Assembly: GCF_053078305.1 (NCBI RefSeq)
Contig: NZ_CP166879.1
DNA length: 64,000 nucleotides
Reading direction: 5' to 3' (one strand)
Part shown: piece after piece, positions 2,442 to 63,475 of the stretch
How positions within the stretch are numbered: the stretch's first letter is position 1
Layout of the letters: each line of letters starts with the position of its first letter
Notes under the pieces: model-generated
The model's input: the letters and a program-made list of their open reading frames with translations, nothing else
What the model was told of the DNA's origin: nothing
Database searches by the model: none
Made by a program: the position numbers and the translations under genes

Positions 2442-3491
2442 TTAACCCGGTAACCGACTTTTCGGTCTGCCCGGCCCCAGTAAAATCGCCAGTTTGCTGC
2501 CGCCTTTCGTCGTTTCCATCCAGATTTTACACACGCTGGTTAATGGCACCGAAAGTAGCATCCCTACCGGGCCGAGCAGCCATCCCCAAATTAACAATGA
2601 AAGAAATACCACCATGGTGGACATCCCCAGGCGATGGCCCATCATCCGTGGTTCTAAAATATTGCCGATGACCATATGGACCACTAAAAACAATGCGCCG
2701 ACCAGAATACATTCGTAAACACCATTAAACAGCAGCACCTGAATCATTGGCGGTACGGCGGAAATTACCGCGCCGATATTGGGCACGTAGTTGAGCAAAA
2801 ACGCCAGTACTGCCCACATCAGCGCAAACTGCACCCCCATCAGCTCCAGCCCCAGCCAGACGATGACACCTGTCCATAAACTGAGTAGCGTCTTTAACGC
2901 CAGATAATGCGAAACGCCTTTAAGTGCGCGGTGTAGTCCGGCGATATGAATCTGTGGATTATTCAATGCAAAACGCATTTTGTAAGGGACGTGGCGCACT
3001 TCAAACAGCATAAAAACTACGGTCATCACCAGCAAAAGCACGCTCGCCATTGCCCCGGAAAGCCCGGTCATTAGCGCTGTGGTGAAGGTAACCACTTTTT
3101 CCGAGTCCATCCGCTGCAGCATTCGCTCCGGCGACATATGCAAATTAAGAAAAGGCAACATCTCCTGCAATTTAAAAAGTTTGCGCGTCAGCTCCTTATT
3201 AAACTTCGGCAGCATAGAGATAAATTCGTTAAACGATGCCGCCAGTACGCCGACCAGCGCGGTTAGTGCGATCAGCATCACCACCACTACAATCGTAATG
3301 GCAACGGGGCGTTGTACTCCCCGACGAATAAACCAGGTGACGAGCGGGTTGAGGACGATGGCAAAAAACAGCGCCAGTAACAGCTGCACAATGATATCTG
3401 CCGCTGCGTGAATGCCCGCGAGGATCACTACCAGCGAGGCCAGCTTGAGCAGAATGTGCATGCCCGTTTTATCGGGTTGAGGGGTTTCCAT
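2442..3491 (-). CDS. yhhT: AI-2E/PerM-family membrane transporter
   Basis: Polytopic membrane protein. ORF trimmed to Met giving 349 aa; position next to yhhS matches the K-12 order. Confidence 0.85.
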   Translation of the reverse strand: METPQPDKTGMHILLKLASLVVILAGIHAAADIIVQLLLALFFAIVLNPLVTWFIRRGVQRPVAITIVVVVMLIALTALVGVLAASFNEFISMLPKFNKELTRKLFKLQEMLPFLNLHMSPERMLQRMDSEKVVTFTTALMTGLSGAMASVLLLVMTVVFMLFEVRHVPYKMRFALNNPQIHIAGLHRALKGVSHYLALKTLLSLWTGVIVWLGLELMGVQFALMWAVLAFLLNYVPNIGAVISAVPPMIQVLLFNGVYECILVGALFLVVHMVIGNILEPRMMGHRLGMSTMVVFLSLLIWGWLLGPVGMLLSVPLTSVCKIWMETTKGGSKLAILLGPGRPKSRLPG

Positions 3492-3622
3492 TGGGGCTTC
3501 CTTGTGACTTTTTGTATTAAGTGTAGCGGGAGTAACGCCAGCAATATTCTGATTCTTACTGCTGATTTTCACGTCAGCACGTGGTAAAAATGAAACACTG
3601 TTGTAAAAATGTGGTGATCCTC

Positions 3623-4840
3623 ATGCCCGAACCCGTAGCCGAACCCGCGCTAAACGGATTGCGCCTGAATTTGCGCATTGTCTCCATTGTCATGTTTAAC
3701 TTCGCCAGCTACCTCACCATCGGGTTGCCGCTCGCTGTATTACCGGGCTATGTCCATGATGTGATGGGCTTTAGCGCTTTCTGGGCAGGATTGGTTATCA
3801 GCCTGCAATATTTCGCCACCTTGCTGAGCCGTCCTCATGCCGGACGTTACGCCGATTTGCTGGGCCCCAAAAAGATTGTCGTCTTCGGTTTATGCGGCTG
3901 CTTTTTGAGCGGTCTGGGATATCTGACGGCAGGATTAACCGCCAGTCTGCCCGTCATCAGCCTGTTATTACTTTGCCTGGGACGCGTCATCCTTGGGATT
4001 GGGCAAAGTTTTGCCGGAACGGGATCGACCCTGTGGGGCGTTGGCGTGGTTGGCTCGCTGCATATCGGGCGGGTGATTTCGTGGAACGGCATTGTCACTT
4101 ATGGGGCGATGGCGATGGGTGCGCCGTTAGGTGTCGTGTTTTATCACTGGGGCGGCTTGCAGGCGTTAGCGTTAATCATTATGGGCGTGGCGCTGGTGGC
4201 CATTTTGTTGGCGATCCCGCGTCCGACGGTAAAAGCCAGTAAAGGCAAACCGCTGCCGTTTCGCGCGGTGCTTGGGCGTGTCTGGCTGTACGGTATGGCG
4301 CTGGCACTGGCTTCCGCCGGATTTGGCGTCATCGCCACCTTTATCACGCTGTTTTATGACGCTAAAGGTTGGGACGGTGCGGCTTTCGCGCTGACGCTGT
4401 TTAGCTGTGCGTTTGTCGGTACGCGTTTGTTATTCCCTAACGGCATTAACCGTATCGGCGGCTTAAACGTAGCGATGATTTGCTTTAGCGTTGAGATAAT
4501 CGGCCTGCTACTGGTTGGCGTGGCGACTATGCCGTGGATGGCGAAAATCGGCGTCTTACTAGCGGGGGCCGGGTTTTCGCTGGTGTTCCCGGCATTGGGT
4601 GTAGTGGCGGTAAAAGCGGTTCCGCAGCAAAATCAGGGGGCGGCGCTGGCAACTTACACCGTATTTATGGATTTATCGCTTGGCGTGACTGGACCACTGG
4701 CTGGGCTGGTGATGAGCTGGGCGGGCGTACCGGTGATTTATCTGGCGGCGGCGGGACTGGTCGCAATCGCGTTATTACTGACGTGGCGATTAAAAAAACG
4801 GCCTCCGGAACACGTCCCTGAGGCCGCCTCATCATCTTAA
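3623..4840 (+). CDS. yhhS: MFS transporter
   Basis: 12-TM-like hydrophobic protein. Trimmed to Met giving 405 aa; divergent from yhhT. Confidence 0.85.
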   Translation: MPEPVAEPALNGLRLNLRIVSIVMFNFASYLTIGLPLAVLPGYVHDVMGFSAFWAGLVISLQYFATLLSRPHAGRYADLLGPKKIVVFGLCGCFLSGLGYLTAGLTASLPVISLLLLCLGRVILGIGQSFAGTGSTLWGVGVVGSLHIGRVISWNGIVTYGAMAMGAPLGVVFYHWGGLQALALIIMGVALVAILLAIPRPTVKASKGKPLPFRAVLGRVWLYGMALALASAGFGVIATFITLFYDAKGWDGAAFALTLFSCAFVGTRLLFPNGINRIGGLNVAMICFSVEIIGLLLVGVATMPWMAKIGVLLAGAGFSLVFPALGVVAVKAVPQQNQGAALATYTVFMDLSLGVTGPLAGLVMSWAGVPVIYLAAAGLVAIALLLTWRLKKRPPEHVPEAASSS

Positions 4841-4843
4841 AAC

Positions 4844-5401
4844 TTACTGAATAACCAGCGTATTAATGATGTTTTCTGCGGTGGTCTGCGCTTTTTGCTG
4901 ATCGTCAGCTGGCAGAGTAATTTGCATGGTCAGCAGTTGATTACCCACGTTACCCAGAATAACGGAAGAGTACGCCGTCTGGCCTTTCGCGGAGATAATA
5001 CTGTCTAACTGCTGCATTTTGTGACCTTTCAGCTCAATGGCTTTATTGGTTACCACTTGCAGCTGCGGATCGCGGCTACGTTGCTGATCTTCCAGACGCT
5101 TCGCCAGCACCGCCAGATCTTCTTTCGGATCATCGCCCATGATGACGATGACTGCTTTCTGCCCGGTGGCGTCGGACCAGACATGCATGTTATTGGCCTG
5201 CGTTCCCAGCTTACCGCTCTGGTCGGTCATATCCGCTGGCAGCGAGAAACTTAACTTGCCATCAAGCAGGTTGACGGGATTCCCGGTAGCGTTACTTTCC
5301 GCGACCGAACCCTGCGCCGTAGCGTTAGTGTCTTTATCATCACAGGCCGCAAGCCCCATAACCAGCAGGCCAATTCCGACATATTTAACCAGATTGCGCA
5401 T
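4844..5401 (-). CDS. dcrB: Periplasmic lipoprotein DcrB
   Basis: [20 protein letters not shown] lipobox signal. Trimmed to 185 aa; synteny. Confidence 0.85.
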
Positions 5402-5473
5402 TGACTTCTTCCTTTCGATAAACGGCCATAACGGCTCATTCATCCATCTTATCACAACTCTGATAACGAACCT

Positions 5474-6139
5474 TTAACTCGCCTGCAAAGCGTTGATTTC
5501 GGATTTATCTGCCAGTCTTTTCAACAGCATATTGAGTAATACGCCATACATTGGTAGGAAGAAAACGATACTGATTAACACTTTGAAACAGTAATCGACC
5601 AGCGCGATTTCCATCCAGTGTTCAGCCATAAAGGCATCCGGGCTACGCCAGAAGGCAATGAAGAAAAAGGCCAGCGTGTCGCTGACGTTACCGAACAGTG
5701 TGGACGCTGTCGGTGCCAGCCACCAGCGGCGACTCTGACGCAGGCGGTTAAAAACGTGCACGTCGAGGATCTGTCCCAGCGCGTAGGCCATGAAACTGGC
5801 GGTGGCGATACGGGCGACAAACAGGTTGAAGTGGGCGAGTGCGCCGAATCCCTGCCAGGAACCCATATAGAATAGCGACGAGATGACGTAGGAGATCAGC
5901 AACGCCGGGATCATCACCGCAAAGATGATACGACGGGCCAGCGGTGCGCCAAAAATACGCACGGTCAGGTCGGTAGCAAGGAAAATAAACGGGAAGCTAA
6001 ACGCGCCCCAGGTGGTATGGAAACCAAAAATGGAGACGGGAAGCTGAACCAGATAGTTACTGGAGGTGATCACCAGCAGATGAAATAACGATAACCAGAA
6101 CAACGCCTTATAGCGTTGAGTTTGCGAGAAAACGTTCAT
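5474..6139 (-). CDS. yhhQ: Queuosine-precursor transporter family membrane protein
   Basis: 221-aa polytopic membrane protein in the conserved position between dcrB and tusA. Confidence 0.85.
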   Translation of the reverse strand: MNVFSQTQRYKALFWLSLFHLLVITSSNYLVQLPVSIFGFHTTWGAFSFPFIFLATDLTVRIFGAPLARRIIFAVMIPALLISYVISSLFYMGSWQGFGALAHFNLFVARIATASFMAYALGQILDVHVFNRLRQSRRWWLAPTASTLFGNVSDTLAFFFIAFWRSPDAFMAEHWMEIALVDYCFKVLISIVFFLPMYGVLLNMLLKRLADKSEINALQAS

Positions 6140-6359
6140 ATTGTACCTTTTTGATTAACCATTGGGGTGAGGGAACCCAATACGTACGACACGTCTGTTA
6201 CCTTAACATAATAACGTGCTTACCCTTTTTTCGAGCCGCCGCATGATACTGCTTTACGTTGACAATGCAATGGTTAATTTTCACGCAATCGTTAACCTGG
6301 TTTGCTTACGGACTCACAGGGCGTAAACTAGCGCCGTTTTTTTATGTGATGAGAAGAAA

Positions 6360-6605
6360 ATGACCGATCTCTTTTCCAGCCCTGACCACACACTCGACGC
6401 ACTTGGCCTGCGCTGCCCGGAACCCGTAATGATGGTGCGCAAAACAGTGCGCAATATGCAGCCAGGTGAAACGTTGCTGATTATTGCTGACGATCCGGCG
6501 ACGACCCGCGATATCCCTGGGTTTTGTACCTTTATGGAACACGAACTGGTTGCCAAAGAGACGGATGGACTGCCTTATCGTTATTTGATTCGTAAAGGCG
6601 GTTGA
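6360..6605 (+). CDS. tusA: Sulfur carrier protein TusA
   Basis: 81-aa protein with the conserved CPxP motif ([12 protein letters not shown]). Confidence 0.95.
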
Positions 6606-6706
6606 TGGGGGCAGATTGGCTTCGATGCCGCCTTTTCCCCTCACCCTAACCCTCTCCCCAGAGGAGCGAGGGGACCGATCGCGCTCAATGTTGCGATCGG
6701 TTTGCC

Positions 6707-8905
6707 TTATCTCCTGCGCAACAATCTTAACGCATTCGCTGTCACCAGCACCGTCGCACCCGTATCTGCCAGCACCGCCAGCCATAGTCCGGTCATTCCT
6801 AACAGCGTGGTGACGAGGAAGATCCCTTTCAGCCCCAGCGCAATAGTGATGTTCTGGCGGATATTGGCGTGAGTGGCGCGTGCCAGTTCAATCATTTGCA
6901 CCAGACCGCGCAGGTGGTTATGGGTTAATGCTGCGTCGGCGGTTTCCAGCGCCACGTCTGTGCCGCTGCCCATTGCAATCCCGATGGCGGCAGCTTTCAT
7001 CGCTGGCGCGTCGTTAATACCATCACCGACCATCGCCAGCGGCGCATGTTGATTCAGCTCGGTTACCGCTTTGACTTTATCTTCCGGCAATAGGCCCGCT
7101 TTAAATTCCAGCCCCAGTTCCCCGGCGATTGCCGCCGCTGCGCGTGGATTATCGCCGGTGAGGATCACTCCTTTAACCCCCAGCGCGTTCAGTTCACTGA
7201 TGGCAGTTGCAGCATCGGCGCGCAGGGTATCCTGTAACGCAATGACACCAAGCACGTCATCGTTACGTACTACCAGCACTACCGTTTGCCCGGCGCTTTC
7301 CAGTTCGTTAATTAAACCAGCAAATGCATCAGCGGGATGTTTCCCGGCAGAGCAAATCAATACGCGCTCACCGTTAACCTGCGCTTCAATGCCAGACCCG
7401 ACCAGCGCCCGCTGTGATTCGGCGGCGGGAATGGCGAGTGCAGCAACCTGTGCTTCGCGCACGATGGCCTGCGCCAGTGGATGCGTCGCGCCTTGCTCGA
7501 CCGCCGCCGCCAGTGTCAGCAGTTCAGATTCACTAATACCCGTTGCCGGATGAATCGCGGTAACGCGCGGTTTACCGACGGTCAGCGTACCGGTTTTATC
7601 AAACGCCACCTGGGTAACACGACCTAGCTGCTCCAGCGCCGCACCGCCTTTAATTAACGCCCCACGACGTGCCGCTGCTGCCAGCCCGGAGGTAATCGCC
7701 GCGGGCGTGGAGATAACTAACGCACACGGGCAGCCAATCAGCAGCAGCGTCAGGCCTTTATAAATCCACTCTTGCCAGCTGGCGGCAAACAGCAGCGGCG
7801 GCACCAGCGTTACCAGCAGGGCGACGGCCATAATCGCTGGCGTATAAATACGGCTGAAACGGTCAATAAACCGCTCAATGGGAGCGCGACGCTCTTCGGC
7901 TTCTTCGATCAGTTTCAGAATCCGGTCAATGGCGCTGGCTCCCGGTTCGGACAATACTTCCAACGTCACCAGACGGTCTACGCTGGTGGCGCCTGCAGGA
8001 ACTTTATCGCCCGTCGCACGCTCCACCGGAATGGATTCGCCGGTCAGGGCGCTTTCATCAAAACTGGCAAAGGGTGAGAGCAGTTTACCGTCGGCAGGCA
8101 AACGCCCACCCGCCGCAACTTCAATCACATCGCCAGGGCGCAGGCTGTTAATTGCCACCTCTTCACGCTCACCGTTACGCAGGCGCGTGGCGTTTTCTGG
8201 TTTCAGCGCCATTAACGCGCTGACGCCCTGACGCGCGCGGCTGGCGGCCCAACCTTCTAGTCGTTCACCAATCAAAAACAGCAGCAACACCATCGCAGCT
8301 TCAGCCGTTGCGCCAATAAACAGCGCACCAATAGCGGCTACGCTCATTAACGTTTCAATGGCGAAGTAACTGCCTGATTTGATCAGCCGTAATGCCTGAC
8401 GAGCAATCGGGTACAGCCCAACCAGCGTGGTCGCGATAAACGCCAGTTGCCCGAACGGATGATTGAACTGCTCCAGACCCCAGCTGATTGCCATCATCAC
8501 GATTAGCGTAATCAGCGGCAGATTCTCTTTCAGGCGCGATTCTTGTTGTTCTTCGGCGGCCTGTTCATCGCGTAGGGAATAGCCCGCTTTTTGCACCGCA
8601 GATTCAACCTGGGCACGGATGTCATTGTCGGCATCCACCACCAGTTTTTCGGTGGCGAACAACACCTGCACCTGATTCACGCCTGCAAGCTGGCGCACGG
8701 CGTTTTCTACCTTGCGCGCACAGGCGGCGCAGTCCATGCCGCTGACTTTCCAGCTATAGCGGGTGCCGGAGACGTTTTCAGAGAGCGTTGGCGTGCTGGA
8801 ACATGCGCCGTCGCAGCAACAGTCGTTGGCGTTCTGTACCGTGGTTAGCGGTTTGAACGCAGCAAATTGAGGGGCTTTCTTGCCGTGATTGTCAGGAGTC
8901 GACAT
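6707..8905 (-). CDS. zntA: Zn/Cd/Pb-translocating P1B-type ATPase
   Basis: 732 aa with N-terminal GMDCAAC metal-binding motif, CPC transmembrane motif, DKTGTLT phosphorylation site and GDGINDAPA hinge. Confidence 0.97.
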   Translation of the reverse strand: MSTPDNHGKKAPQFAAFKPLTTVQNANDCCCDGACSSTPTLSENVSGTRYSWKVSGMDCAACARKVENAVRQLAGVNQVQVLFATEKLVVDADNDIRAQVESAVQKAGYSLRDEQAAEEQQESRLKENLPLITLIVMMAISWGLEQFNHPFGQLAFIATTLVGLYPIARQALRLIKSGSYFAIETLMSVAAIGALFIGATAEAAMVLLLFLIGERLEGWAASRARQGVSALMALKPENATRLRNGEREEVAINSLRPGDVIEVAAGGRLPADGKLLSPFASFDESALTGESIPVERATGDKVPAGATSVDRLVTLEVLSEPGASAIDRILKLIEEAEERRAPIERFIDRFSRIYTPAIMAVALLVTLVPPLLFAASWQEWIYKGLTLLLIGCPCALVISTPAAITSGLAAAARRGALIKGGAALEQLGRVTQVAFDKTGTLTVGKPRVTAIHPATGISESELLTLAAAVEQGATHPLAQAIVREAQVAALAIPAAESQRALVGSGIEAQVNGERVLICSAGKHPADAFAGLINELESAGQTVVLVVRNDDVLGVIALQDTLRADAATAISELNALGVKGVILTGDNPRAAAAIAGELGLEFKAGLLPEDKVKAVTELNQHAPLAMVGDGINDAPAMKAAAIGIAMGSGTDVALETADAALTHNHLRGLVQMIELARATHANIRQNITIALGLKGIFLVTTLLGMTGLWLAVLADTGATVLVTANALRLLRRR

Positions 8906-11112: not shown

Positions 11113-12609
11113 ATGGCGAAAGAAAAAAAACGTGGCTTTTTTTCCTGGCTGGGCTTTGGTCAAAAAGAGCAGACCCCGGAAAAAGAGACAGAAGTTCAGA
11201 ATGAACAACCGGTTGTAGAAGAAATCGTTCAGGCGCAAGAGCCTGCGAAGGCTTCGGAACAAGCCGTTGAAGAGCAGCCGCAGGCGCATACTGAAGCCGA
11301 GGCGGAAACTTTTGCTGCCGACGTTGTGGAAGTCACTGAACAGGTAGCTGAAAGTGAAAAAGCGCAGCCTGAAGCGGAAGTCGTTGCACAGCCGGAACCG
11401 GTCGTAGAAGAAACGCCGGAGCCAGTGGCTATCGAGCGTGAAGAACTGCCGTTGCCGGAAGACGTCAACGCCGAAGAGGTTTCGCCAGAAGAGTGGCAGG
11501 CTGAAGCGGAAACCGTAGAGATTGTCGAAGCGGCGGAAGAAGAAGCGGCTAAAGAAGAAATCACCGACGAAGAGCTGGAAGCACAGGCGCTGGCAGCCGA
11601 AGCGGCAGAAGAGGCGGTGATGGTGGTTCCTCCGGCAGAAGAAGAGCAGCCGGTGGAAGAAATCGCTCAGGAGCAGGAAAAACCAACCAAAGAAGGTTTC
11701 TTCGCGCGCCTGAAACGCAGCCTGTTAAAAACCAAAGAAAATCTCGGTTCCGGATTTATCAGCCTGTTCCGCGGTAAAAAAATCGACGATGATCTTTTTG
11801 AAGAGCTGGAAGAACAGCTGTTGATCGCCGATGTGGGCGTGGAAACCACACGTAAAATTATCACCAATCTGACGGAAGGCGCATCCCGCAAGCAGCTTCG
11901 TGATGCCGAGGCGCTCTATGGCCTGCTGAAAGAAGAGATGGGCGAGATTCTGGCGAAAGTCGATGAGCCGCTGAATGTTGAAGGTAAAACGCCGTTCGTG
12001 ATCCTGATGGTGGGCGTCAACGGTGTGGGTAAAACCACGACGATTGGTAAGCTGGCACGTCAGTTTGAGCAGCAGGGTAAATCGGTGATGCTGGCGGCGG
12101 GCGATACTTTCCGTGCAGCAGCGGTTGAACAGCTTCAGGTCTGGGGTCAGCGCAACAATATTCCGGTGATTGCCCAGCATACCGGTGCGGATTCCGCCTC
12201 TGTTATCTTCGACGCCATTCAGGCAGCTAAAGCGCGTAATATCGACGTCCTGATTGCCGATACCGCCGGACGTCTGCAGAACAAATCGCATCTGATGGAA
12301 GAGTTGAAGAAAATCGTCCGCGTGATGAAGAAACTCGACGTTGAAGCGCCGCATGAAGTTATGCTGACTATTGATGCCAGCACCGGGCAGAACGCGGTAA
12401 GCCAGGCCAAACTGTTCCACGAAGCTGTTGGCTTAACCGGCATCACGCTAACGAAACTGGACGGCACGGCGAAAGGCGGGGTAATTTTCTCGGTGGCTGA
12501 CCAGTTTGGTATCCCTATCCGCTACATTGGTGTCGGCGAACGTATTGAGGATTTGCGTCCGTTTAAGGCGGACGACTTTATAGAGGCACTTTTTGCCCGA
12601 GAGGATTAA
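11113..12609 (+). CDS. ftsY: Signal recognition particle receptor FtsY
   Basis: Acidic E/A/Q-rich N-terminal domain followed by an SRP GTPase domain (GVNGVGKTTT, DTAGR, TKLDG). Confidence 0.97.
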   Translation: MAKEKKRGFFSWLGFGQKEQTPEKETEVQNEQPVVEEIVQAQEPAKASEQAVEEQPQAHTEAEAETFAADVVEVTEQVAESEKAQPEAEVVAQPEPVVEETPEPVAIEREELPLPEDVNAEEVSPEEWQAEAETVEIVEAAEEEAAKEEITDEELEAQALAAEAAEEAVMVVPPAEEEQPVEEIAQEQEKPTKEGFFARLKRSLLKTKENLGSGFISLFRGKKIDDDLFEELEEQLLIADVGVETTRKIITNLTEGASRKQLRDAEALYGLLKEEMGEILAKVDEPLNVEGKTPFVILMVGVNGVGKTTTIGKLARQFEQQGKSVMLAAGDTFRAAAVEQLQVWGQRNNIPVIAQHTGADSASVIFDAIQAAKARNIDVLIADTAGRLQNKSHLMEELKKIVRVMKKLDVEAPHEVMLTIDASTGQNAVSQAKLFHEAVGLTGITLTKLDGTAKGGVIFSVADQFGIPIRYIGVGERIEDLRPFKADDFIEALFARED

Positions 12610-12611
12610 CA

Positions 12612-13280
12612 ATGATTCGCTTTGAACATGTCAGCAAGGCTTATCTCGGTGGGAGACAGGCGCTGCAGGGCGTTACGTTCCATATGCAGCCGGGTGAGAT
12701 GGCGTTTCTGACCGGTCATTCCGGCGCAGGGAAAAGTACCCTCCTGAAGCTGATCTGTGGGATTGAGCGGCCCAGCGCCGGGAAAATCTGGTTTAGCGGC
12801 CATGACATCACGCGTCTGAAAAACCGTGAAGTTCCGTTTCTGCGCCGCCAGATTGGCATGATTTTCCAGGATCACCATCTACTGATGGACCGTACTGTCT
12901 ACGATAACGTGGCGATCCCGCTGATTATCGCCGGTGCCAGCGGTGACGATATTCGTCGCCGGGTGTCGGCGGCGCTGGATAAAGTCGGGCTACTGGACAA
13001 AGCGAAGAACTTCCCTATTCAGCTTTCCGGCGGTGAACAACAGCGTGTTGGCATTGCCCGCGCGGTGGTGAACAAGCCCGCTGTACTGCTGGCGGACGAA
13101 CCGACCGGTAACCTGGACGACGCGTTGTCGGAAGGGATTCTACGTCTGTTTGAAGAGTTTAACCGCGTTGGGGTAACCGTATTGATGGCAACGCACGACA
13201 TCAACCTGATTTCACGGCGTTCCTATCGCATGCTCACCCTGAGCGATGGTCACTTGCATGGAGGCGTGGGCCATGAATAA
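12612..13280 (+). CDS. ftsE: Cell-division ABC transporter ATP-binding protein FtsE
   Basis: Walker [13 protein letters not shown] signature LSGGEQQR, Walker [12 protein letters not shown]. Confidence 0.97.
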
Positions 13281-14331
13281 GCGCGATGCAATCAATCATA
13301 TCCGGCAGTTTGGCGGGCGTCTGGATCGCTTCCGTAAATCGGTCGGCGGCTCTGGCGACGGCGGTCGTAACGCACCGAAACGCGCGAAATCCTCGCCAAA
13401 ACCGGTAAATCGCAAAACCAACGTTTTCAACGAACAGGTGCGCTATGCCTTCCACGGCGCATTGCAGGATCTGAAAAGCAAACCGTTCGCCACGTTTTTA
13501 ACGGTGATGGTTATCGCCATCTCTCTGACGCTGCCCAGCGTCTGTTATATGGTGTACAAAAACGTTAACCAGGCGGCGACGCAGTATTATCCGTCACCGC
13601 AAATCACTGTTTATCTGCAAAAAACGCTGGACGATGACGCTGCTGCGGGCGTGGTGGCACAGTTGCAGGCCGAGCAAGGCGTGGAGAAAGTGAATTATCT
13701 TTCTCGTGAAGACGCACTGGGTGAGTTCCGTAACTGGTCTGGTTTTGGTGGTGCGCTGGATATGCTGGAAGAAAACCCGCTTCCGGCAGTGGCGGTGGTG
13801 ATCCCGAAACTCGATTTTCAGGGGACGGAATCACTGAATACGCTGCGCGATCGTATCACGCAGATTAACGGCATTGACGAAGTGCGGATGGATGACAGCT
13901 GGTTTGCCCGTCTGGCGGCGTTGACCGGGCTGGTCGGGCGCGTTTCGGCGATGATCGGCGTGTTGATGGTGGCGGCAGTGTTCCTCGTCATCGGTAACAG
14001 TGTACGCCTGAGTATCTTTGCTCGTCGTGACTCCATTAACGTGCAGAAACTGATTGGTGCAACGGATGGTTTCATCCTGCGCCCGTTCCTGTACGGTGGC
14101 GCATTGCTGGGGTTTTCTGGCGCATTGTTGTCATTAATTTTGTCAGAAATTCTGGTGCTGCGATTGTCATCGGCGGTTGCGGAAGTGGCACAGGTTTTCG
14201 GAACGAAGTTTGATATCAATGGTTTATCGTTCGATGAATGCCTGCTGTTGCTGCTGGTATGCTCGATGATTGGCTGGGTGGCAGCGTGGCTTGCCACGGT
14301 ACAACATTTACGCCACTTTACGCCTGAATAA
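13273..14331 (+). CDS. ftsX: Cell-division ABC transporter permease-like protein FtsX
   Basis: Trimmed to [12 protein letters not shown]... giving 352 aa; overlaps the ftsE 3' end. Confidence 0.93.
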
Positions 14332-14483: not shown

Positions 14484-14575
14484 AAAACAGTGAATGATAA
14501 CCTCGTTGCTCTTAAGCTCTGGCACAGTTGTTGCTACCACTGAAGCGCCAGAAGATATCGATTGAGAGGATTTGA

Positions 14576-52251: not shown

Positions 52252-54717
<2,466 letters not shown>

Positions 54718-54732
54718 GTTCGCTAAAAAACA

Positions 54733-54762
54733 GAACGGGGCCACAAGGTCCCGTTTTTTTTC
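54733..54762 (+). terminator. Rho-independent terminator after glgP
   Basis: GAACGGGGCCACAAGGTCCCGTT hairpin followed by TTTTTTTT. Confidence 0.85.
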
Positions 54763-54833
54763 GCCTTTATTTCGGAAAAGTGTCCAGAGGGGGCGAGGGT
54801 TCTCGGGGAGTATAATTCCGTCATTCAGGAAGA

Positions 54834-56351
54834 ATGGACAGAATGATGCCAAATAGAAAATGGATTTTGACCTCGCTGATAATGACTTTTTTCGGCATCC
54901 CCATACTGGCGCAATTTTTGGCAGCGGTTGTTGCCATGCTGGGTGTCGGGCTTACCGGTATTATTGAAGTTTGTAATATCCTTATCACGCCAACAATTTA
55001 TCTTCTACTCAACGTCTTTATGCTGACGCTGGGGGCGATAATAATATTTTTCTCTGGTCGCGTGTGGGCCGGTGATAGCGCGCCAGAAAACAGAGAAATA
55101 GCCGTCTGGCGGCAATGCTTTTTTCTCTTACCCGCGCTATTAACCCTGGTTGGCTGGATAATCACGCTACATCTGGCAGATTATCAATTTCGCCAGATGG
55201 GAGCTGGTTGGTTGGCAAACCTTATGCTTCCCTGGTTGGGCGTTTTTTTAGTCTCATTAGTGGGTGGTGAGTACTGGTGGATGGTCATTATTCCCGTTGG
55301 GGTGCATATCAGTTTTTCGCTGGGATACGCCTGGCCGACCAGATATCCTTTATCCGGCACGTCCGGACTACGTTGCCGTAACTTACTCCTGTTTCTACTT
55401 CTCTTACTTGGTATTGTCGCCGGGTATCAGGCCCATTTATATAAGCAGCAAAATCCTGGTGTCGGTGTACGCGAAAATATTGATATCTGGGCCTGGCGAC
55501 CCGATAAACTCAATAATCGACTGACGCCGCTGCGTGGCAAACCGCAAATTCAGTTTAGGCAAAACTGGCCGCGAATCGATGGCGCCACGGCTGCGTACCC
55601 AATTTATGCTTCTGCATTTTATGCATTAAGTGTAATACCAGAGGATTTTCACGTTTGGGATTATCTGGAAAACTCTCGTACGCCAGAAGCATATAACAAA
55701 ATCGTTAAGGGCGATGCTGATATTATTTTCGTGGCGCAACCTTCCGGTGGGCAAAAAAAACGTGCAAAGGAATCTGGTGTCACTTTGCTGTACACCCCCT
55801 TTGCCCGTGAAGCATTCGTTTTCATCGTCAATGCGGATAATCCGGTTAATTCCCTGACTGAACAACAGGTGCGTGACATTTTCAGTGGTGCAATTACCAA
55901 CTGGCGTACTTTTGGCGGTAACGATCAGGAGATCCAGACCTGGCAGCGCCCGGAAGACTCTGGCAGCCAGACAGTGATGCAATCACAGGTCATGAAAAAT
56001 GTCCGCATGATCTCGCCGCAGGAAACGGAAGTGGCAAGCGTGATGGAGGGAATGATTAAAGTCGTTGCCGAATACCGTAATACAAACAACGCAATAGGCT
56101 ATACCTTCCGCTATTACGCGACGCAAATGAATGCTGATAAAAATATAAAATTGCTAGCGATTAACGGTATTACACCGACGGCGGAAAACATTCGCAACGG
56201 CAAATATGCGTACATCGTCGATGCATTTATGGTGACGAGAGAAAATAAAACGTCAGAAACACAAAAACTGGTCGAATGGTTTTTAACGCCGCAGGGGCAG
56301 AGTCTGGTAGAAGATGTGGGATATGTGCCGCTGTATAAAATCTTACCTTAA
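54834..56351 (+). CDS. Membrane-anchored PstS-like (phosphate-binding-type) periplasmic binding domain protein; accessory relative to K-12
   Basis: 505 aa. The N-terminal roughly 200 aa hold multiple hydrophobic helices; the C-terminal roughly 280 aa resemble PstS-like binding proteins (IDGATAAYPIYASAF, LTEQQVRDIFSGAITNWRTFGG). Start may be ATG 54843, which has better SD spacing. Confidence 0.65.
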   Translation: MDRMMPNRKWILTSLIMTFFGIPILAQFLAAVVAMLGVGLTGIIEVCNILITPTIYLLLNVFMLTLGAIIIFFSGRVWAGDSAPENREIAVWRQCFFLLPALLTLVGWIITLHLADYQFRQMGAGWLANLMLPWLGVFLVSLVGGEYWWMVIIPVGVHISFSLGYAWPTRYPLSGTSGLRCRNLLLFLLLLLGIVAGYQAHLYKQQNPGVGVRENIDIWAWRPDKLNNRLTPLRGKPQIQFRQNWPRIDGATAAYPIYASAFYALSVIPEDFHVWDYLENSRTPEAYNKIVKGDADIIFVAQPSGGQKKRAKESGVTLLYTPFAREAFVFIVNADNPVNSLTEQQVRDIFSGAITNWRTFGGNDQEIQTWQRPEDSGSQTVMQSQVMKNVRMISPQETEVASVMEGMIKVVAEYRNTNNAIGYTFRYYATQMNADKNIKLLAINGITPTAENIRNGKYAYIVDAFMVTRENKTSETQKLVEWFLTPQGQSLVEDVGYVPLYKILP

Positions 56352-56453
56352 GCAGGATAATCATATGGATACCGGTATTATTCGCCTGAACGCGGCCAAT
56401 GCTCGTTTTGTTTATCAACCGTTTACACGCAATCAGCGGAAGAGGGAGTAATT

Positions 56454-57230
56454 ATGCAATGCAGCCCCGCCATGCAGGCATTAATTGAGCAGATTTATCA
56501 TATTTTTCGTCGTTATCCGGTGCCGTCGAGATTTCATGTTTGTTGTCCTTACTGCTTTAGCGAAGAACAACAACAAGCCTTAAGAGGGGTTTCACTGCGT
56601 GCCATACCTTTCCCTTTATTACATGCCTGGGGAACAAGTATTGGTCCTACCCCGCAAAATGATGATGAGATTCGCTATTTATTACCCAGATTGTTTGAAT
56701 TTATTTCCCAAAGGCAATTTCCAGGCATTTATGAAGGCTGCTGTTTACAGAGAATAGCAGAGGCAGATAACCAGAACTGGCGAACGGACGAACTACAAAT
56801 AATTAGCGATTTCGCCTATTTATATATGCAGGATTGGGTGTCGGCTAAGGAGGTCGTAGAACTGGAAATAATATTAGAAATGTTTTATCGCGGTGGTATA
56901 AAGATTGAACCCTTACTTGACGCCATTATGTCCATTTCCGGTTACTGGCCGACGGCGTCTATGGCATGTTTGCTCTGGCGTAACAGTAAAGAATACGTCG
57001 AAAATAGCGATTTTGAGCAGAGTGATGATAATAAAACTATTACCACTCAAATTAATACCTGGGCTAGAAATAATCATCCTTTTCTGAAAGAAAGAGCGCG
57101 ACAAGCGATTGAGAACCCACTAAAACAGCCTGAACCAATGACAGAATATCAAGTCTGGGAAGACGACTGGATGATTGATGAGTGTTTATGCGCGATGTAT
57201 GACGCATCACCCGAACAATCAGGACAATAA
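56454..57230 (+). CDS. Hypothetical Cys-rich soluble protein
   Basis: 258-aa ORF with a HVCCPYC cluster near the N-terminus and no recognised motifs; AT-rich codon usage. Confidence 0.5.
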   Translation: MQCSPAMQALIEQIYHIFRRYPVPSRFHVCCPYCFSEEQQQALRGVSLRAIPFPLLHAWGTSIGPTPQNDDEIRYLLPRLFEFISQRQFPGIYEGCCLQRIAEADNQNWRTDELQIISDFAYLYMQDWVSAKEVVELEIILEMFYRGGIKIEPLLDAIMSISGYWPTASMACLLWRNSKEYVENSDFEQSDDNKTITTQINTWARNNHPFLKERARQAIENPLKQPEPMTEYQVWEDDWMIDECLCAMYDASPEQSGQ

Positions 57231-57232
57231 AG

Positions 57233-57823
57233 ATGAATAAAATCAGACTTTATATTTATCCGCTATATCTCGGCTTTGTTATTGTGCCGTTGTTGGTGTG
57301 GCCGACGGTGGTTGTTGTTGGTATCACACTGAGTTTTCTAATGGAGATGCTGTTCTCAAATTCGTTCATGCACAGGCGTATTTCCCTTCTGGAATTACAA
57401 CTTGGGTTATTGGCTGAATATACGCTTTTGTTCTGCGCCATATGTTGCGTTGGTTGGCAATTTGCTCGCATAACTCAATCTGAATTGAAAAGCAAACTGC
57501 ATTATTGGCTGGTATTTGTACCAGTTTATTTCTGGTTGCTCCTGTGGAATATCATTTTCTATGTCGCGCCAGCGAAAATTGCATTGCTGGAAAATATGCG
57601 CAGTTTCTTTCTGACCGTTGTCTGGCTCCCACTGAATTTTTCGCCATTTTGGTCTCAACCGTGGATTGACTTTGTCGGTCCAATAAGCGCACAGCTTGGT
57701 TTTGCGTTGGGATATTATTGCCAGTGGCGTAGCAAAAATAGAAGCCAGAGGAAGAAGTGGGGCGAGTGGGTAATGTGCTTAAGTTTTGTTACGTTGGGTA
57801 TGATGGCGTGGGCTTTGCGGTAA
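57233..57823 (+). CDS. Hypothetical polytopic membrane protein
   Basis: 196-aa ORF with 4-5 predicted TM helices. Its start is 3 bp after the stop of the upstream ORF. Confidence 0.5.
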   Translation: MNKIRLYIYPLYLGFVIVPLLVWPTVVVVGITLSFLMEMLFSNSFMHRRISLLELQLGLLAEYTLLFCAICCVGWQFARITQSELKSKLHYWLVFVPVYFWLLLWNIIFYVAPAKIALLENMRSFFLTVVWLPLNFSPFWSQPWIDFVGPISAQLGFALGYYCQWRSKNRSQRKKWGEWVMCLSFVTLGMMAWALR

Positions 57824-57857
57824 TTCCCTGAATCAAAAAGTAGGTCAGATTGTTGAC

Positions 57858-57995
57858 AACGTGGCGCTTTGTTCATGCCTGATGCGGCGTGAACGCCTTA
57901 TCAGGCCTACAAAATCATGCAAATTCAACATATTGCATAAACCACGTAGGCCTGATAAGCGTAGCGCATCAGGCAATTTTGTGTTTGTCATCAGT
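57858..57995. repeat. REP/BIME palindromic units between the accessory module and glpD
   Basis: GCCTGATGCGGCGTGAACGCCTTATCAGGCCTACA and inverted TAGGCCTGATAAGCGTAGCGCATCAGGCA. Confidence 0.85.
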
Positions 57996-58037
57996 CTCAG
58001 GCCAGATTGAAATCTGACCTGATCACCTTACGTTAAT

Positions 58038-59543
58038 TTACGACGCCAGCGACAACTTCTGCTGCGTATATTCCACCAGCCACTGACTCACACGAGATTG
58101 TTGATCCGCATTCAGCCACATGCCTTGTTTTGTGCGACGCCACAGGGCATCGTCGGCGCGGCGGACCCATTCGTGATCCACCAGATATTTCAGCTCCGCT
58201 TCGTAGAACTCATGACCGAAATCCTCCCCAAGGTCGCTTACCGCTCCCGCATTGCCGAGCAGCAGCTCGCTGTTGCTGCCATAAGTACGCGCGTAATGAC
58301 GTGCCAGCGATTCGGTCAGGAACGGATAACGACGGCGCAGACGAGCTGCGTAATCGTCGCGGTCGCCTTCAATGGCACCACCCGGCAGCACGCTCTCTTT
58401 CGTCCATGCCGGGCCAATGCCCTGATAATACGGCGTCAGTTTTTCCAGCGCATGTTCCGCCAGTTTGCGGTAGGTGGTCAACTTACCGCCGAATACCGAC
58501 AGCAGCGGTGCTTTGCCGTTTTCATCATGGATATCAAGGGTGTAATCACGGGTAATAGCCTGCGGCGAGTCGGACTCATCATCACACAGCGGACGCACAC
58601 CGGAGTAGGTCCAGACGATATCGTCACGGCTTAACTGCTTTTTAAAGTGCGTGTTATACACTTTCAGCAGGTAATTGATTTCACTCTCTTCAATCTTCAC
58701 TGCTTTCGGATCACCTTTGTATTCCACATCGGTGGTGCCGATGATGGAAAACTCGTCCATCCACGGGATCACGAACACAATGCGTTTATCTTCGTTTTGC
58801 AGAATGTAGGCCTGCTTTTGGGTATGCACGCGCGGCACCACAATATGGCTACCTTTGATCAGGCGAATGCCATAAGGCGAAGGCAGATGCATCCCGTCGT
58901 CGAAGAACTGTTTCACCCACGGGCCGGTGGCGTTAACCAGGCCGCGCGCTTGCCAGCTATATTTTTTGCCGGTATCGATATCTTCCGCTTCCACAATCCA
59001 CAGGCCGTTTTCGCGACGAGCAGAAGTAGCACGAGTACGAGTAAGCACTTCGCCGCCTTTACGCACCACCATCTGGGCGTTGGCGAGTACCAGACGGGCG
59101 TCGTCTACCCAACAGTCAGAATATTCGAATCCGCGCTTAATTTCCGGTTTTAACACTGAGTTTGCGCCAAAACGCAAACCAGTTGATCCCGGCAGGCTGG
59201 TGCGTTTACCCAGATGATCGTACATAAACAGACCAATGCGAATCATCCACGCCGGGCGCAGATGCGGACGATGTGGCAGGCGAAAACGCATCGGGAAGGC
59301 GATATGCGGGGCCATTTTCAGCAGCACTTCACGTTCAGCCAGCGCCTCGCTGACCAGGCGGAATTCATAGTGCTCAAGGTAGCGCAGGCCACCGTGGATG
59401 AGTTTTGAACTGGCGGAAGAGGTCGCGCAAGCGAGATCCTGCGCCTCCAGCATCAGCACGGATAAACCGCGTCCAGCGGCGTCTGCCGCGATACCAGCAC
59501 CATTGATGCCGCCACCTATCACAATCAGATCTTTGGTTTCCAT
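58038..59543 (-). CDS. glpD: Aerobic glycerol-3-phosphate dehydrogenase
   Basis: Trimmed to METKDLIVIGGGINGAGIAADAAGRG giving 501 aa; FAD-binding GxGxxG. Confidence 0.96.
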   Translation of the reverse strand: METKDLIVIGGGINGAGIAADAAGRGLSVLMLEAQDLACATSSASSKLIHGGLRYLEHYEFRLVSEALAEREVLLKMAPHIAFPMRFRLPHRPHLRPAWMIRIGLFMYDHLGKRTSLPGSTGLRFGANSVLKPEIKRGFEYSDCWVDDARLVLANAQMVVRKGGEVLTRTRATSARRENGLWIVEAEDIDTGKKYSWQARGLVNATGPWVKQFFDDGMHLPSPYGIRLIKGSHIVVPRVHTQKQAYILQNEDKRIVFVIPWMDEFSIIGTTDVEYKGDPKAVKIEESEINYLLKVYNTHFKKQLSRDDIVWTYSGVRPLCDDESDSPQAITRDYTLDIHDENGKAPLLSVFGGKLTTYRKLAEHALEKLTPYYQGIGPAWTKESVLPGGAIEGDRDDYAARLRRRYPFLTESLARHYARTYGSNSELLLGNAGAVSDLGEDFGHEFYEAELKYLVDHEWVRRADDALWRRTKQGMWLNADQQSRVSQWLVEYTQQKLSLAS

Positions 59544-59654
59544 GCTGCCCTCATTCACTTTCGTTAAAGCTCATAAATGTTCGTTATCGAACATATTAGC
59601 AAAGAATCGCGCTTTAGGTAACATTGAAAAAACATTTTAGAGTGATATGTATAA

Positions 59655-60950: not shown

Positions 60951-61709
60951 ATGAAACAAACACAACGTCACAACGGTATTATCGAACTGGTTAAACAGCA
61001 GGGTTATGTCAGTACCGAGGAGCTGGTGGAGCACTTCTCCGTCAGCCCGCAGACTATTCGCCGCGACCTCAACGAACTGGCAGAGCAAAACCTGATCCTG
61101 CGCCATCATGGCGGTGCGGCGCTGCCTTCCAGTTCGGTTAACACGCCGTGGCACGATCGTAAAGCCACCCAGACCGAAGAAAAAGAGAGGATTGCCCGTA
61201 AAGTGGCGGAGCAAATCCCCAACGGCTCGACGCTGTTTATCGATATCGGCACCACGCCGGAAGCGGTGGCGCACGCGCTGCTCAATCACAGCAATTTGCG
61301 CATTGTCACCAACAATCTCAATGTTGCTAACACGTTGATGGTAAAAGAAGATTTCCGCATTATTCTCGCCGGTGGCGAATTACGCAGCCGCGATGGCGGG
61401 ATCATTGGCGAAGCGACGCTCGATTTTATCTCCCAGTTCCGCCTTGATTTCGGCATTCTGGGGATAAGCGGCATCGATAGCGACGGCTCGCTGCTGGAGT
61501 TCGATTACCACGAAGTTCGCACCAAACGCGCCATTATTGAGAACTCGCGCCACGTTATGCTGGTTGTCGATCACTCCAAATTTGGCCGTAACGCGATGGT
61601 CAATATGGGCAGCATCAGCATGGTAGATGCCGTCTACACCGACGCCCCGCCGCCAGTAAGCGTGATGCAGGTGCTGACGGACCACCATATTCAACTGGAG
61701 CTGTGCTGA
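60951..61709 (+). CDS. glpR: DeoR-family glycerol-3-phosphate regulon repressor
   Basis: Trimmed to MKQTQRHNGIIELVKQQGYVSTEELVEHF giving 252 aa; N-terminal HTH. Confidence 0.93.
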   Translation: MKQTQRHNGIIELVKQQGYVSTEELVEHFSVSPQTIRRDLNELAEQNLILRHHGGAALPSSSVNTPWHDRKATQTEEKERIARKVAEQIPNGSTLFIDIGTTPEAVAHALLNHSNLRIVTNNLNVANTLMVKEDFRIILAGGELRSRDGGIIGEATLDFISQFRLDFGILGISGIDSDGSLLEFDYHEVRTKRAIIENSRHVMLVVDHSKFGRNAMVNMGSISMVDAVYTDAPPPVSVMQVLTDHHIQLELC

Positions 61710-63289
61710 TCCTGCAATGCTTCCCACGTCAGACCAAAACGCGCCAGGTATTTGCGTAGCCGATCCGCGTCATTGACGCTGGCTTTGCCCTGGCGCGAAA
61801 CGTCAAAAAGCTGGCGTCCGGCTGCGGAAAGCGACTTTGCCTGGCGGCAGATTGCGATAACGTGTTCCAGTTGCATACGGTCGAAGAGATCGATGTTTTC
61901 TGCCTCTGCGCCCAGTAGCTGCGTAAGCGCGGAGGGGCGGCTCTCCTGCCAGTTATAGCGCAGACGGTTTATCTCATCTTCAACCACGTCCAGAGTGATG
62001 CGTCCGCTAGTGGCAAAGGTAGCCATCCGCGTGACGCTGGCAGAAAGCTCGCGAAAGTTACCGCGCCATGTTGCCTGGGGAGATGTCGCAAAGGCCAGCC
62101 AGGCGCGCCGCGCTTCGGTGTTAAAACGCACGCTGTCGCCGGTGAGTGAAGCGTGGCGCTCCACTTCATAATCCAGGTTAGGTTCAATATCTTCCTGACG
62201 CTGGCGTAGCCCCGGCAGGGTGAAGGTCCAGAGATTGATCCGCGCGTATAGATCTTCGCGGAATTTGCCATCGGCAACCAGCTGGCGCAAATCACGCACC
62301 GTTCCGGCGATAAGCTGAAAATCACTGCTCACCTGGCGATCGCTGCCAAACGGATAAAAGGTTTTTTCTTCAATGGCTTTCAGCAGCATTGCCTGTTCGT
62401 CTGCGCCCAGTTCGCCAATCTCATCAAGAAACAACATTCCGCCGTTGGCGCTGCGTAATAATCCTTCACGAGATTCCCGCGCCCCGGTAAACGCGCCTTT
62501 CACATGACCAAACAGCGTCGACATGGCGGTATCGCCGCGCAGGGTTGCGCAGTTCACTTCCACAAACGCGCCGCTAAACTGATGCCGCGCCTGTTTTAAT
62601 TCAAATATACGTCGCGCCAGAAATGACTTGCCCGCACCGGTTGGGCCGTTTAGCAGGATCGGTGCGCGGGATTTAATCGCCACTTTTTCAATCTGCTCAA
62701 TCATGCGGTTGAAGTGGGGGTTACGCGTGGCAATACCGGACTTAAGAAAATCAAGCGTTTGCTGGCGTTCCTCGGCAAAGCGGCTGGCGATGGCGTTATA
62801 ACGGCTTAAATCGAGATCGATAATCGTCACTTCACCTGCGCCGCGCGGCTGTTCTTTTTTGCGCGGAGGTGAAGATTGTATCAACCGGGCGGGCAGGTAA
62901 CGCGCTTCAGCCAGCAGAAACCAGCAAATCTGCGCGACGTGGGTGCCGGTGGTGATGTGAATTAAATAGTCTTCTTTTTCTGGCTGAAACTCGTAACCAC
63001 GGGCGAAATCATGCAGGCAGGCGTAAACCTCTTCGAAATCCCACGGGTTATGCAGCTCAATCTCAACGCTCACCACTTCTGTTTCTGGCGAAACGCTGAC
63101 GATATCGCGTTTAAGCGTTTCAAACAGCGAGCGCGAGCGGGCGTCGTGCAATAATTCCAGTCGATCGATGACTAACGATTCTTGCTGGCATATACAGAGT
63201 GACGGACGCCATTTCGACCAGCGCTGACTGCCGCGTCCGGCATAATCCAGTACGGTGCCGACAAAGCCAAAAGCCACTGTTTTACGCAT
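61691..63289 (-). CDS. rtcR: Sigma-54-dependent transcriptional activator RtcR
   Basis: Trimmed to [11 protein letters not shown] giving 532 aa. AAA+ sigma-54 activator motifs ([14 protein letters not shown]). The 3' end overlaps glpR convergently. Confidence 0.92.
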
Positions 63290-63423
63290 CTTAGATATCC
63301 TTATAAAAGACGATATTTCATTATCGGTAAATCGGCTTTGCGGGAAATCTCCGGTTACGGACGTAAAGATATAATCTTTTTTAAAACAATGAATTAAAAA
63401 ATTAATCTGCTTATTTAATTTTC

Positions 63424-63439
63424 TGGCACGACGGTTGCA
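63424..63439 (+). promoter_or_regulatory. Sigma-54 promoter for rtcBA
   Basis: TGGCACGACGGTTGCA matches the -24/-12 consensus (TGGCAC, 5 nt, TTGCA) and lies about 37 bp upstream of the rtcB ATG. Confidence 0.85.
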
Positions 63440-63475
63440 ATTATCAGGACATACCAACGAAAAGAGAAAAACAAA

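Follow-up and report, generated by a model that had tools for sequence, protein, structure and literature searches.

Between glgP and glpD, the 64,000-nucleotide stretch of contig NZ_CP166879.1 analyzed here (hereafter the window) carries three genes on the plus strand: gene 1 (54834-56351), a 505-amino-acid (aa) open reading frame (ORF) for a membrane-tethered PstS-like binding protein; gene 2 (56454-57230), a 258-aa ORF for a predicted cytoplasmic, all-helical (HEAT-like) protein, a rare allele within a family that is associated with rtc RNA-repair genes; and gene 3 (57233-57823), a 196-aa ORF for a polytopic membrane protein. We tentatively favor, at slightly less than even confidence, the reading that these genes form a polymorphic operon at a variable site, in which a tethered periplasmic oxyanion binder and an RNA-damage-response protein would be housed together, and not a dedicated three-part machine. 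The anatomy beneath this reading, namely an autonomous tethered binder, a spare copy of its membrane domain, and one representative of an rtc-linked family, is well supported; a functional coupling between the envelope binding protein and the RNA-damage protein would be a further step. A first-pass annotation of this DNA had reported three same-strand ORFs of 505, 258, and 196 aa, which we recovered at the same coordinates, and had treated them as one self-contained three-gene machine. The genes are indeed intact and linked, and gene 1 is tethered; however, the middle gene is swapped between strains and gene 1 is autonomous, and the single-machine proposal is only partly supported.

Gene 1 combines two domains. 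Residues 247-485 (55572-56288, plus strand) matched the PBP_like_2 (PstS-type) family PF12849 with an E-value of 5.6e-29 and are predicted to be periplasmic. Neither a cleavable signal peptide nor a lipoprotein signal was found on gene 1; instead, the binding domain is preceded by about 205 hydrophobic residues that form a membrane domain of six predicted helices (residues 1 to ~206; 54834-55451, plus strand), as the earlier description of a multi-helix membrane domain joined to a PstS-like domain had held. The nearest solved structures to the binding domain were the phosphate-binding proteins 4q8r, 4gd5, 4n13, and 1twy. Among 76 full-length relatives, G250-A251-T252, S304, Q371-R372, and S376-G377-S378-Q379 were invariant or nearly so, and alignment with PstS places these residues at the predicted anion-binding positions. 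Other positions of the site differ: in the alignment of the 76 members with solved PstS proteins, those matching two regions of E. coli PstS, around Ser38 and around Asp56, were changed. The equivalent of Asp56 is Ser in the gene 1 family, on the residue roles that we presume for PstS. Gene 1 shares with the PstS family (PF12849; TIGR02136) the domain, the Arg-x3-Ser-Gly-Ser/Thr anion motif, and the N-terminal Gly-Ala-Thr, but its second and third ligand-site motifs have diverged, a polytopic membrane domain replaces the signal peptide or lipobox, and at 118.8 bits it falls short of the curated NCBIfam threshold for TIGR02136 (206.6). As judged from these comparisons, the ligand is likely to be of the phosphate type.

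The membrane domain was modeled with AlphaFold2 from a 41-sequence alignment, giving a predicted local distance difference test (pLDDT) score of 89.9 and a predicted template modeling (pTM) score of 0.87, with helices at residues 8-46, 53-81, 87-114, 124-144, 149-169, and 177-206. A Foldseek search of this model against AFDB50 returned its own family alone at E<=0.003, the next matches having E>0.5; transporter folds appeared just at E>0.8, with template modeling (TM) scores below 0.3. The domain matched none of the folds of ATP-binding cassette (ABC) permeases, major facilitator superfamily transporters, sensor kinases, or chemoreceptors, and gene 1 has no cytoplasmic output domain. An ABC importer with a fused permease was considered for gene 1 and rejected, as the Foldseek search of the membrane domain found its own family only. 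Judged by the distribution of Lys and Arg across the 76 family members, the N-terminus faces inside, together with loops 2-3 and 5-6, and the acidic stretch that follows helix 6 faces outside; the binding domain would therefore lie in the periplasm. This orientation fits the lipoprotein signal peptide, ending in LLAGC, of an O157 paralog of the binding domain that is 56% identical to it. The charge pattern requires an odd number of crossings, so one of helices 4 and 5 probably does not span the membrane in the modeled structure.

The gene 1 family is large and self-sufficient in its distribution. It comprised 1447 representative clusters at E<=1e-30; among the best 149 representatives listed after the top match, 75 were 470-530 aa long, and all 75, once aligned, retained an N-terminal region of at least 150 residues. 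The architecture, previously called unusual, is uncharacterized but not rare. As the first-pass annotation had stated, no ABC permease or ATPase stands alongside: pstCAB-type or other ABC genes were found neither beside gene 1, whose neighbors are glgP, gene 2, gene 3, and glpD, nor beside its homologs at 10 other loci. In four distant contigs, the homologs were solitary in unrelated surroundings (after ruvB; between dinB and pepD), with no ABC partner and no relative of gene 2 or gene 3. Because the family is solitary in distant taxa, gene 1 would have no need for genes 2 and 3. Membrane-tethered or fused binding domains have been described, among them those of ABC importers (PMC8050422), and gene 1 likewise keeps a periplasmic binding domain and a membrane domain in one polypeptide; split and fused forms coexist, O157 having a lipoprotein copy plus gene 3. 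Binding proteins can also serve chemoreceptors or sensor kinases, as in Pseudomonas aeruginosa, where PstS feeds the chemoreceptor CtpL (PMC8050422). As the gene 1 family is widespread, lacks a partner transporter, and has a membrane domain of novel fold, knowledge of its ligand and output could inform envelope phosphate-type sensing or capture.

Gene 2 leads to a different cellular system. The Rtc RNA-repair system is poorly understood, and its natural substrates and partners are debated. One relative of gene 2 (P0045; 36% identity, phmmer E 9.5e-41) sits between a divergent rtcR and rtcB. Another, P0306 (27% identity, profile E 7.8e-23), is encoded just after rtcR; its gene shares 4 nt with rtcB, and RlaP and rtcA come next. 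In a metagenome scan, rtcB was present in the available DNA of 20 of the 26 non-Escherichia loci of the distant gene 2 branch, and the rtc-linked loci showed at least five layouts, some with rtcR plus Rsr or an SPFH-like gene upstream. A 262-aa E. coli paralog of gene 2, encoded at glgP-glpD itself, is 47% identical to the rtc-operon member P0045. These comparisons place gene 2 in a family with distant members that adjoin rtcB, many of them directly following rtcR, a divergent activator gene, and clustered with Ro/Rsr, an SPFH-like gene, RlaP, or rtcA. Rtc operons consist of rtcR, a sigma-54 promoter, rtcB, and rtcA, with Rsr/Y RNA and RlaP in some (PMC7790460, PMC12776372); distant homologs of gene 2 thus sit inside such operons, but gene 2 is not homologous to RtcA, RtcB, RtcR, Rsr, RlaP, or archease, and the window copy lies in a separate operon with no sigma-54 site.

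Several loci with gene 2 relatives had further features. At L039-L041, the gene 2 relatives stand beside a divergent RtcB paralog on the opposite strand, 28-31% identical to the RtcB queries, rather than beside canonical rtcB. The rtc operon with a gene 2 relative at L031 has an AbiEi/AbiEii pair and a HipA-family kinase gene, genes of the toxin-antitoxin or abortive-infection type, at its flanks (2245-3740, 11901-13373). Four low-GC contigs (L064, L071, L093, and L108, at ~4500-8200) carry a conserved trio of a 140-149-aa ORF, a gene 2-like ORF of 253-258 aa, and a RecD/Pif1-like helicase of 755-769 aa; in some of them small genes, some apparently toxin-antitoxin-like, lie between the gene 2-like ORF and the helicase. 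The 140-aa protein that precedes Bacteroidota-type gene 2 relatives was considered as a YbbD-like protein and is not recognizably so.

The gene 2 protein was predicted to be all-helical, with a pLDDT of 89 and a pTM of 0.88. Its model matched many uncharacterized proteins of ~250 aa from several phyla in AFDB50, with query-normalized TM-scores mostly of 0.65-0.8; the fold relatives came from Neisseria, Eikenella, Moraxella, Acinetobacter, Capnocytophaga, and Streptococcus sanguinis. The protein contains cysteines at positions 30, 31, and 34 and at 244 and 246, of which Cys30, Cys34, and the C-terminal Glu-Cys-Leu-Cys are conserved in close relatives. Membrane-segment prediction, which found none in gene 2, agrees with the earlier view of gene 2 as soluble and Cys-rich and of gene 3 as polytopic. 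Genes 2 and 3 had no match in Pfam, NCBIfam, PADLOC, PHROGs, or PDB sequences, and gene 2 together with 22 relatives had no match in Pfam or NCBIfam and none to a described immunity family; the profile libraries thus left both genes, as before, without an assignable function. Close relatives of gene 2 were confined to Escherichia, Pseudocitrobacter, Superficieibacter, and further relatives, all at glgP-glpD. A scan of species-representative genomes gave four loci only, all from Enterobacteriaceae and all at one common site, and for this reason could not separate function from descent.

Gene 3, on profile evidence, is a free-standing homolog of the gene 1 membrane domain that lacks the binding domain. 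BLASTP of gene 3 against the N-terminal 230 residues of gene 1 gave nothing significant (best E 0.13). An hhalign comparison of the gene 3 family with the gene 1 N-terminal domains gave a probability of 96.9% and an E-value of 1.4e-10 over 160 collinear columns, aligning gene 3 residues 1-177 with gene 1 residues 5-181; the score was 63.8, as against 27.5 or less in controls in which the template was reversed or its columns or blocks were shuffled (ten shuffles of each kind). The fold search with the gene 1 membrane domain also brought up a 174-aa protein of E. albertii. Members of the gene 3 family were found in Escherichia alone. Locus L023 (931-3969) carries a tandem pair of full-length gene 1 homologs (499 and 507 aa). 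Next come a 234-aa protein whose N-terminus matches YbbD, then a YbbD_head protein of 139 aa, and finally a homolog of gene 2. The tandem arrangement suggests that gene 3 descended from a tandem gene 1 duplicate that dropped its binding domain. The O157-type lipoprotein binding protein and gene 3, taken together, look like a split gene 1. Neither the kinship of gene 3 with gene 1 nor the rtc link of the gene 2 family, as these comparisons indicate them, had been recognized in the first-pass annotation.

The content of the site was surveyed in 5426 complete E. coli genomes, of which roughly 60-70% carry the module. Full-length gene 1 was present in 3349 genomes, with a 5' remnant of 234 nt in the others, and full-length gene 3 was present in 3823. 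The gene 2 family was found at full length in 2959 genomes, but only about 15 had a gene 2 that matched the window allele at 80% nucleotide identity or more. In 885 genomes gene 2 is replaced by a second, lipoprotein-type PstS-like gene. A 236-aa gene, annotated as 'YbbD family' by RefSeq, stands before gene 2, intact in 2326 genomes and as a 3' remnant only in roughly 690. At least five arrangements were seen: gene 1, gene 2, and gene 3, as in the window, TB06051, and R14; gene 1, the second binding protein, and gene 3, as in O157:H7; gene 1, the 236-aa gene, a 255-aa gene 2 allele, and gene 3, a four-gene variant (for example, L003); the 236-aa gene, the 262-aa gene 2 paralog, gene 2, and gene 3; and, in B2-type strains, a fimbrial operon that replaces gene 1 with the downstream genes retained, the gene 2 homolog being a pseudogene in both strains inspected. 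The trio is therefore not a fixed unit.

The arrangement in the window itself bears a trace of what was lost. The gap between genes 1 and 2 measures 102 bp and is not a plain spacer, since it contains the 3' end of a deleted fourth gene: a 74-bp remnant of the 236-aa 'YbbD family' gene (56378-56451, plus strand), comprising its last ~24 codons and stop. In alignment, the window is near-identical to the four-gene variant L003 from 56378 up to the start of gene 2, and with the variant that has the 236-aa gene and the 262-aa paralog it shares 97% identity in gene 2 and 94% in gene 3. The remnant and the allele identities together identify the window as a deletion derivative of a four- or five-gene operon. 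The alignments indicate that the 'YbbD family' gene was lost by deletion, and the second gene 2 paralog was probably lost in the same way. The first ~45 residues of the 236-aa protein match the YbbD model (NF007301 / PF26610 YbbD_head); the protein had no Pfam match and no similarity to gene 2. It thus normally stands ahead of gene 2 and shares with the YbbD family the N-terminal segment only, while in related genera a protein of 138-139 aa that matches most of the model precedes the gene 2 homologs.

The variability of the site as such is known: the glpD-glgP interval is a variable region of extraintestinal pathogenic E. coli, listed as 'GR24 glpD..glgP' and carrying the auf fimbrial island (PMC12928451). 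That island occupies the same chromosomal site, replacing gene 1 and keeping the YbbD-like, gene 2, and gene 3 homologs, but the window itself has no fimbrial genes. In the homologous locus of a relative (L009, 4564-7263), the gene 1 homolog is separated from the YbbD-like/gene 2 pair by an inserted 899-aa superfamily 1 (SF1) helicase with DUF2726, which matches the MkoA, MkoC, Hhe, and ProA anti-phage models; the insertion shows that the glgP-glpD site can accept defence-like cargo. A plasmid search found no mobile gene 2 copies, just a mislabeled chromosome and one weak, lone Deinococcus homolog in an uninformative context. The mislabeled record is NZ_OL790696.1 in the plasmid collection, a 4.8-Mb E. 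coli sequence with the gene 2 family, which is evidently a chromosome filed as a plasmid.

Divergence between alleles was far greater in the module than beside it. The synonymous divergence (dS) between alleles was highest in gene 2, at 1.6-1.9; gene 3 gave 0.8-0.9 and gene 1 gave 0.4-0.55, compared with 0.04-0.10 for glgP and glpD. The ratio of nonsynonymous to synonymous divergence (dN/dS) was 0.06-0.41 overall, being 0.06-0.19 for gene 1 and 0.23-0.41 for gene 3. Within E. coli, gene 2 alleles are 61-65% identical, and the adjacent paralog in some strains is 38% identical. These values point to old allelic lineages under purifying selection, which are neither fast-evolving nor decaying DNA. 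With such ratios, and with frames intact in thousands of genomes, the ORFs are real genes beyond chance. The two halves of gene 1 have separate histories: compared with the O157:H7 allele (L002), the membrane half (54834-55478) was the same at 215 of 215 residues with zero synonymous differences, whereas the binding-domain half had a dS of 0.13. This unequal divergence from O157 implies recombination joints inside gene 1.

The same site explains the K-12 state. A K-12-type locus (L004) aligned by blastn to window positions 54001-55067 and 57759-59000, and the two blocks overlap by 13 nt in L004; the segment missing from K-12-type genomes is therefore 55068-57758. In separate searches, K-12-type genomes matched only bases 1-234 of gene 1 and only bases 527-591 of gene 3. 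It follows from the two blocks that yzgL, the short remnant that K-12 was said to keep between glgP and glpD, fuses the initial ~78 codons of gene 1 to the final ~21 of gene 3. The alignment indicates that yzgL was produced by a 2.69-kb microhomology deletion between short repeats, and that the derived state is that of K-12, not of the window. The three ORFs are thus not ordinary orthologs of annotated K-12 genes, because K-12 has just a pseudogene remnant; their co-occurrence across genomes is partial, genes 1 and 3 being usually found together and the middle gene being swapped. The module is accessory relative to K-12, as the first-pass annotation had held, and being deleted there it escaped the genetics that defined E. 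coli gene functions.

The favored reading can be put as a mechanism. Gene 1 would be an inner-membrane protein whose N-terminus faces inside and whose binding domain lies in the periplasm, where it may clamp a phosphate-type oxyanion or a phosphorylated small molecule via Thr252, Ser304, and Arg372-x3-Ser-Gly-Ser; its open or closed state would be relayed to its own membrane domain. The membrane-domain copy encoded by gene 3 might partner gene 1; in O157-type strains its partner might instead be the free lipoprotein binding domain. Gene 2 would be a cytoplasmic helical-repeat scaffold, its ends probably joined by a Cys4 metal site, and could act in the RNA-damage response of RtcB/RtcA, either holding damaged RNA or repair enzymes or neutralizing an RNA-cutting toxin. 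In Escherichia it would be expressed from the glgP-glpD operon and not from the sigma-54 rtc promoter 6 kb away. The narrower idea that the gene 2 family is an unnamed component of the RNA-damage response, normally found in RtcR-controlled operons and relocated by a few kb in Escherichia, is possible though doubtful. If the rtc link holds, a family that travels with rtcB in several lineages would be a new candidate Rtc partner. Most wild E. coli would then have an Rtc accessory factor or an anti-ribotoxin protein that is missing from K-12, and the Rtc biology of E. coli would have been studied without the gene 2 protein. By itself, the locus reveals no new kind of system, and much of it is ordinary mosaic evolution at a known variable site.

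A number of observations weigh against this interpretation. The window copy of gene 2 is outside an rtc operon: rtcR-rtcB lies 3.9-6 kb downstream of the module, and rtcR (61691-63457, minus strand) is 3.9 kb off, parted from gene 2 by glpD and glpEGR. The sigma-54 consensus TGGCAC-N5-TTGCW is absent upstream of gene 1 and gene 2. Perfect sites in the window stand at 63424-63439 and 14520-14535, both on the plus strand; the former, the sole one nearby, occupies the stretch that separates rtcR from the expected start of rtcB and presumably serves as the rtcBA promoter. The third, low-GC group of gene 2 relatives has no rtc genes nearby, and the same is true of the single copies on the Deinococcus plasmid and at L033 and L036. 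In the distant, rtc-linked subfamily the C-terminal Cys-x-Cys is missing, the N-terminal Cys pair alone being universal, so the proposed metal clamp is not universal. The co-occurrence of the trio in Enterobacteriaceae at a single syntenic site could reflect descent rather than function. The missed NCBIfam PstS cut-off and the Ser at the Asp56 equivalent make a phosphate ligand for gene 1 less certain, and six predicted helices clash with an N-in/C-out topology unless one of them is non-spanning. The literature searched contained no experiment on these genes and nothing on their function; yzgL is only listed there, and the site is noted as variable. What was already known is that the genes are in databases, as PstS-family and hypothetical proteins, and that the site varies. 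In the literature searched, the origin of yzgL, the kinship of genes 3 and 1, the fourth-gene remnant, and the link between gene 2 and Rtc are undescribed, although the last may be in RNA-repair surveys.

Other readings of the same evidence were considered. The three proteins could build a single envelope complex, with the tethered PstS-like domain as a sensor of periplasmic phosphate, the two membrane proteins in charge of transmission or transport, and the soluble Cys-rich protein providing the output in the cytoplasm. The genes share a strand with short or 2-nt spacers and look like one operon between a terminator and a repeat cluster; a membrane domain is common to genes 1 and 3, which are usually found together; the same families recur at the same site in Pseudocitrobacter, Superficieibacter, and further relatives; and PstS-family proteins do feed receptors, for example in the PstS/CtpL pair (PMC8050422). 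Such a complex nevertheless appears improbable, as gene 1 is solitary in distant taxa, a second binding protein takes the place of the middle gene in 885 genomes, B2-type strains exchange gene 1 for a fimbrial operon while keeping the downstream genes (with a gene 2 pseudogene in two strains), gene 2 relatives elsewhere accompany rtcB and not binding proteins, and gene 3 is absent from several homologous loci. Rather unlikely, too, is an immunity stockpile, in which gene 2 and the lost YbbD gene would counter RNA-cutting toxins of the Rhs or contact-dependent inhibition (CDI) type that other bacteria deliver and gene 3 a membrane-acting toxin, with gene 1 as just the conserved neighbor. The old, divergent alleles and tandem paralogs at one site are suggestive only. 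The product of the partner gene matches K-12 YbbD over its N-terminal ~45 residues, and K-12 ybbD occupies what we take to be the immunity-gene position of the orphan Rhs fragment ylbH; the fold relatives of gene 2 are uncharacterized proteins of ~250 aa from Neisseria, Moraxella, Streptococcus sanguinis, and others; and an anti-RNase immunity protein in an RNA-repair operon would make biological sense. Against this stand the lack of any toxin gene, fragment, or toxin-like ORF in any inspected locus variant, so that the site differs from orphan Rhs immunity genes in having no Rhs or other toxin gene; the lack of a Pfam match to a described immunity family; and dN/dS well under 1. Tight translational coupling to rtcB in several lineages would suit an operon partner equally well.

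Both remaining readings have very little probability. The first-pass annotation had raised a conflict function, and the variable site, which in a related genus gained the 899-aa SF1 helicase with DUF2726 that matches defence models, might suggest an unrecognized anti-phage system in a defence hotspot. This was dropped as the main reading because no model matches (zero PADLOC matches at E<=1 for all three proteins, which leaves the conflict function without a matching anti-phage family) and because the genes are near-core in E. coli, not sporadic. Nor was a nuclease, ATPase, or other effector domain found, and there were no plasmid copies save the mislabeled chromosome and the weak Deinococcus match; the PHROGs phage protein-family library gave no match, phage genomes themselves not having been searched with gene 2 or 3. 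It is just as hard to credit that the genes are decaying leftovers without current function, as in K-12. About 1600 genomes besides K-12 have lost most of the module, the window carries a gene remnant, and some B2-type strains have the gene 2 homolog as a pseudogene; however, the frames are intact in thousands of genomes despite near-saturated synonymous divergence, dN/dS stays within the range given above, and the motifs are strongly conserved across the wider families.

The module is bounded on both sides, as previously described. The flanking genes are glgP (52270-54717) and glpD (58038-59558, minus strand). Upstream, a terminator-like hairpin of glgP (AACGGGGCC / GGTCCCGTT, followed by a T-run; 54734-54761, plus strand) was read by eye; a simple hairpin scan missed it because the stem holds one mismatch. 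Downstream, ahead of glpD, lies a cluster of palindromic repeats of the repetitive extragenic palindrome (REP) or bacterial interspersed mosaic element (BIME) type (~57839-57975, no strand assigned). An Rfam scan of the intergenic DNA gave ES036 at 57911-57953 (39.3 bits, above gathering) and naRNA4 below gathering, both REP-derived, and nothing beyond such matches. The GC content is 0.40-0.49 over the module and 0.50-0.57 in glgP and glpD, in line with the reported AT-richness relative to the glg and glp flanks. The gene 2 stop and the gene 3 start are separated by a 2-nt spacer.

The closest complete genome, E. coli TB06051, is 95.8% identical across the entire stretch and has the same three genes annotated, under the RefSeq names 'PstS family phosphate ABC transporter substrate-binding protein' and, for the other two, hypothetical protein. 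RefSeq starts gene 1 at 54843, nine bases downstream of 54834, giving 502 aa. The candidate starts at 54834, 54843, and 54846 share one AGGAAG, and a TATAAT hexamer lies 17 nt before the first ATG (54811-54846). No Pho box was seen by eye in 54762-54833. A 379-aa ORF on the minus strand (53713-54852), antisense to glgP and overlapping the gene 1 start, looks like a chance ORF.

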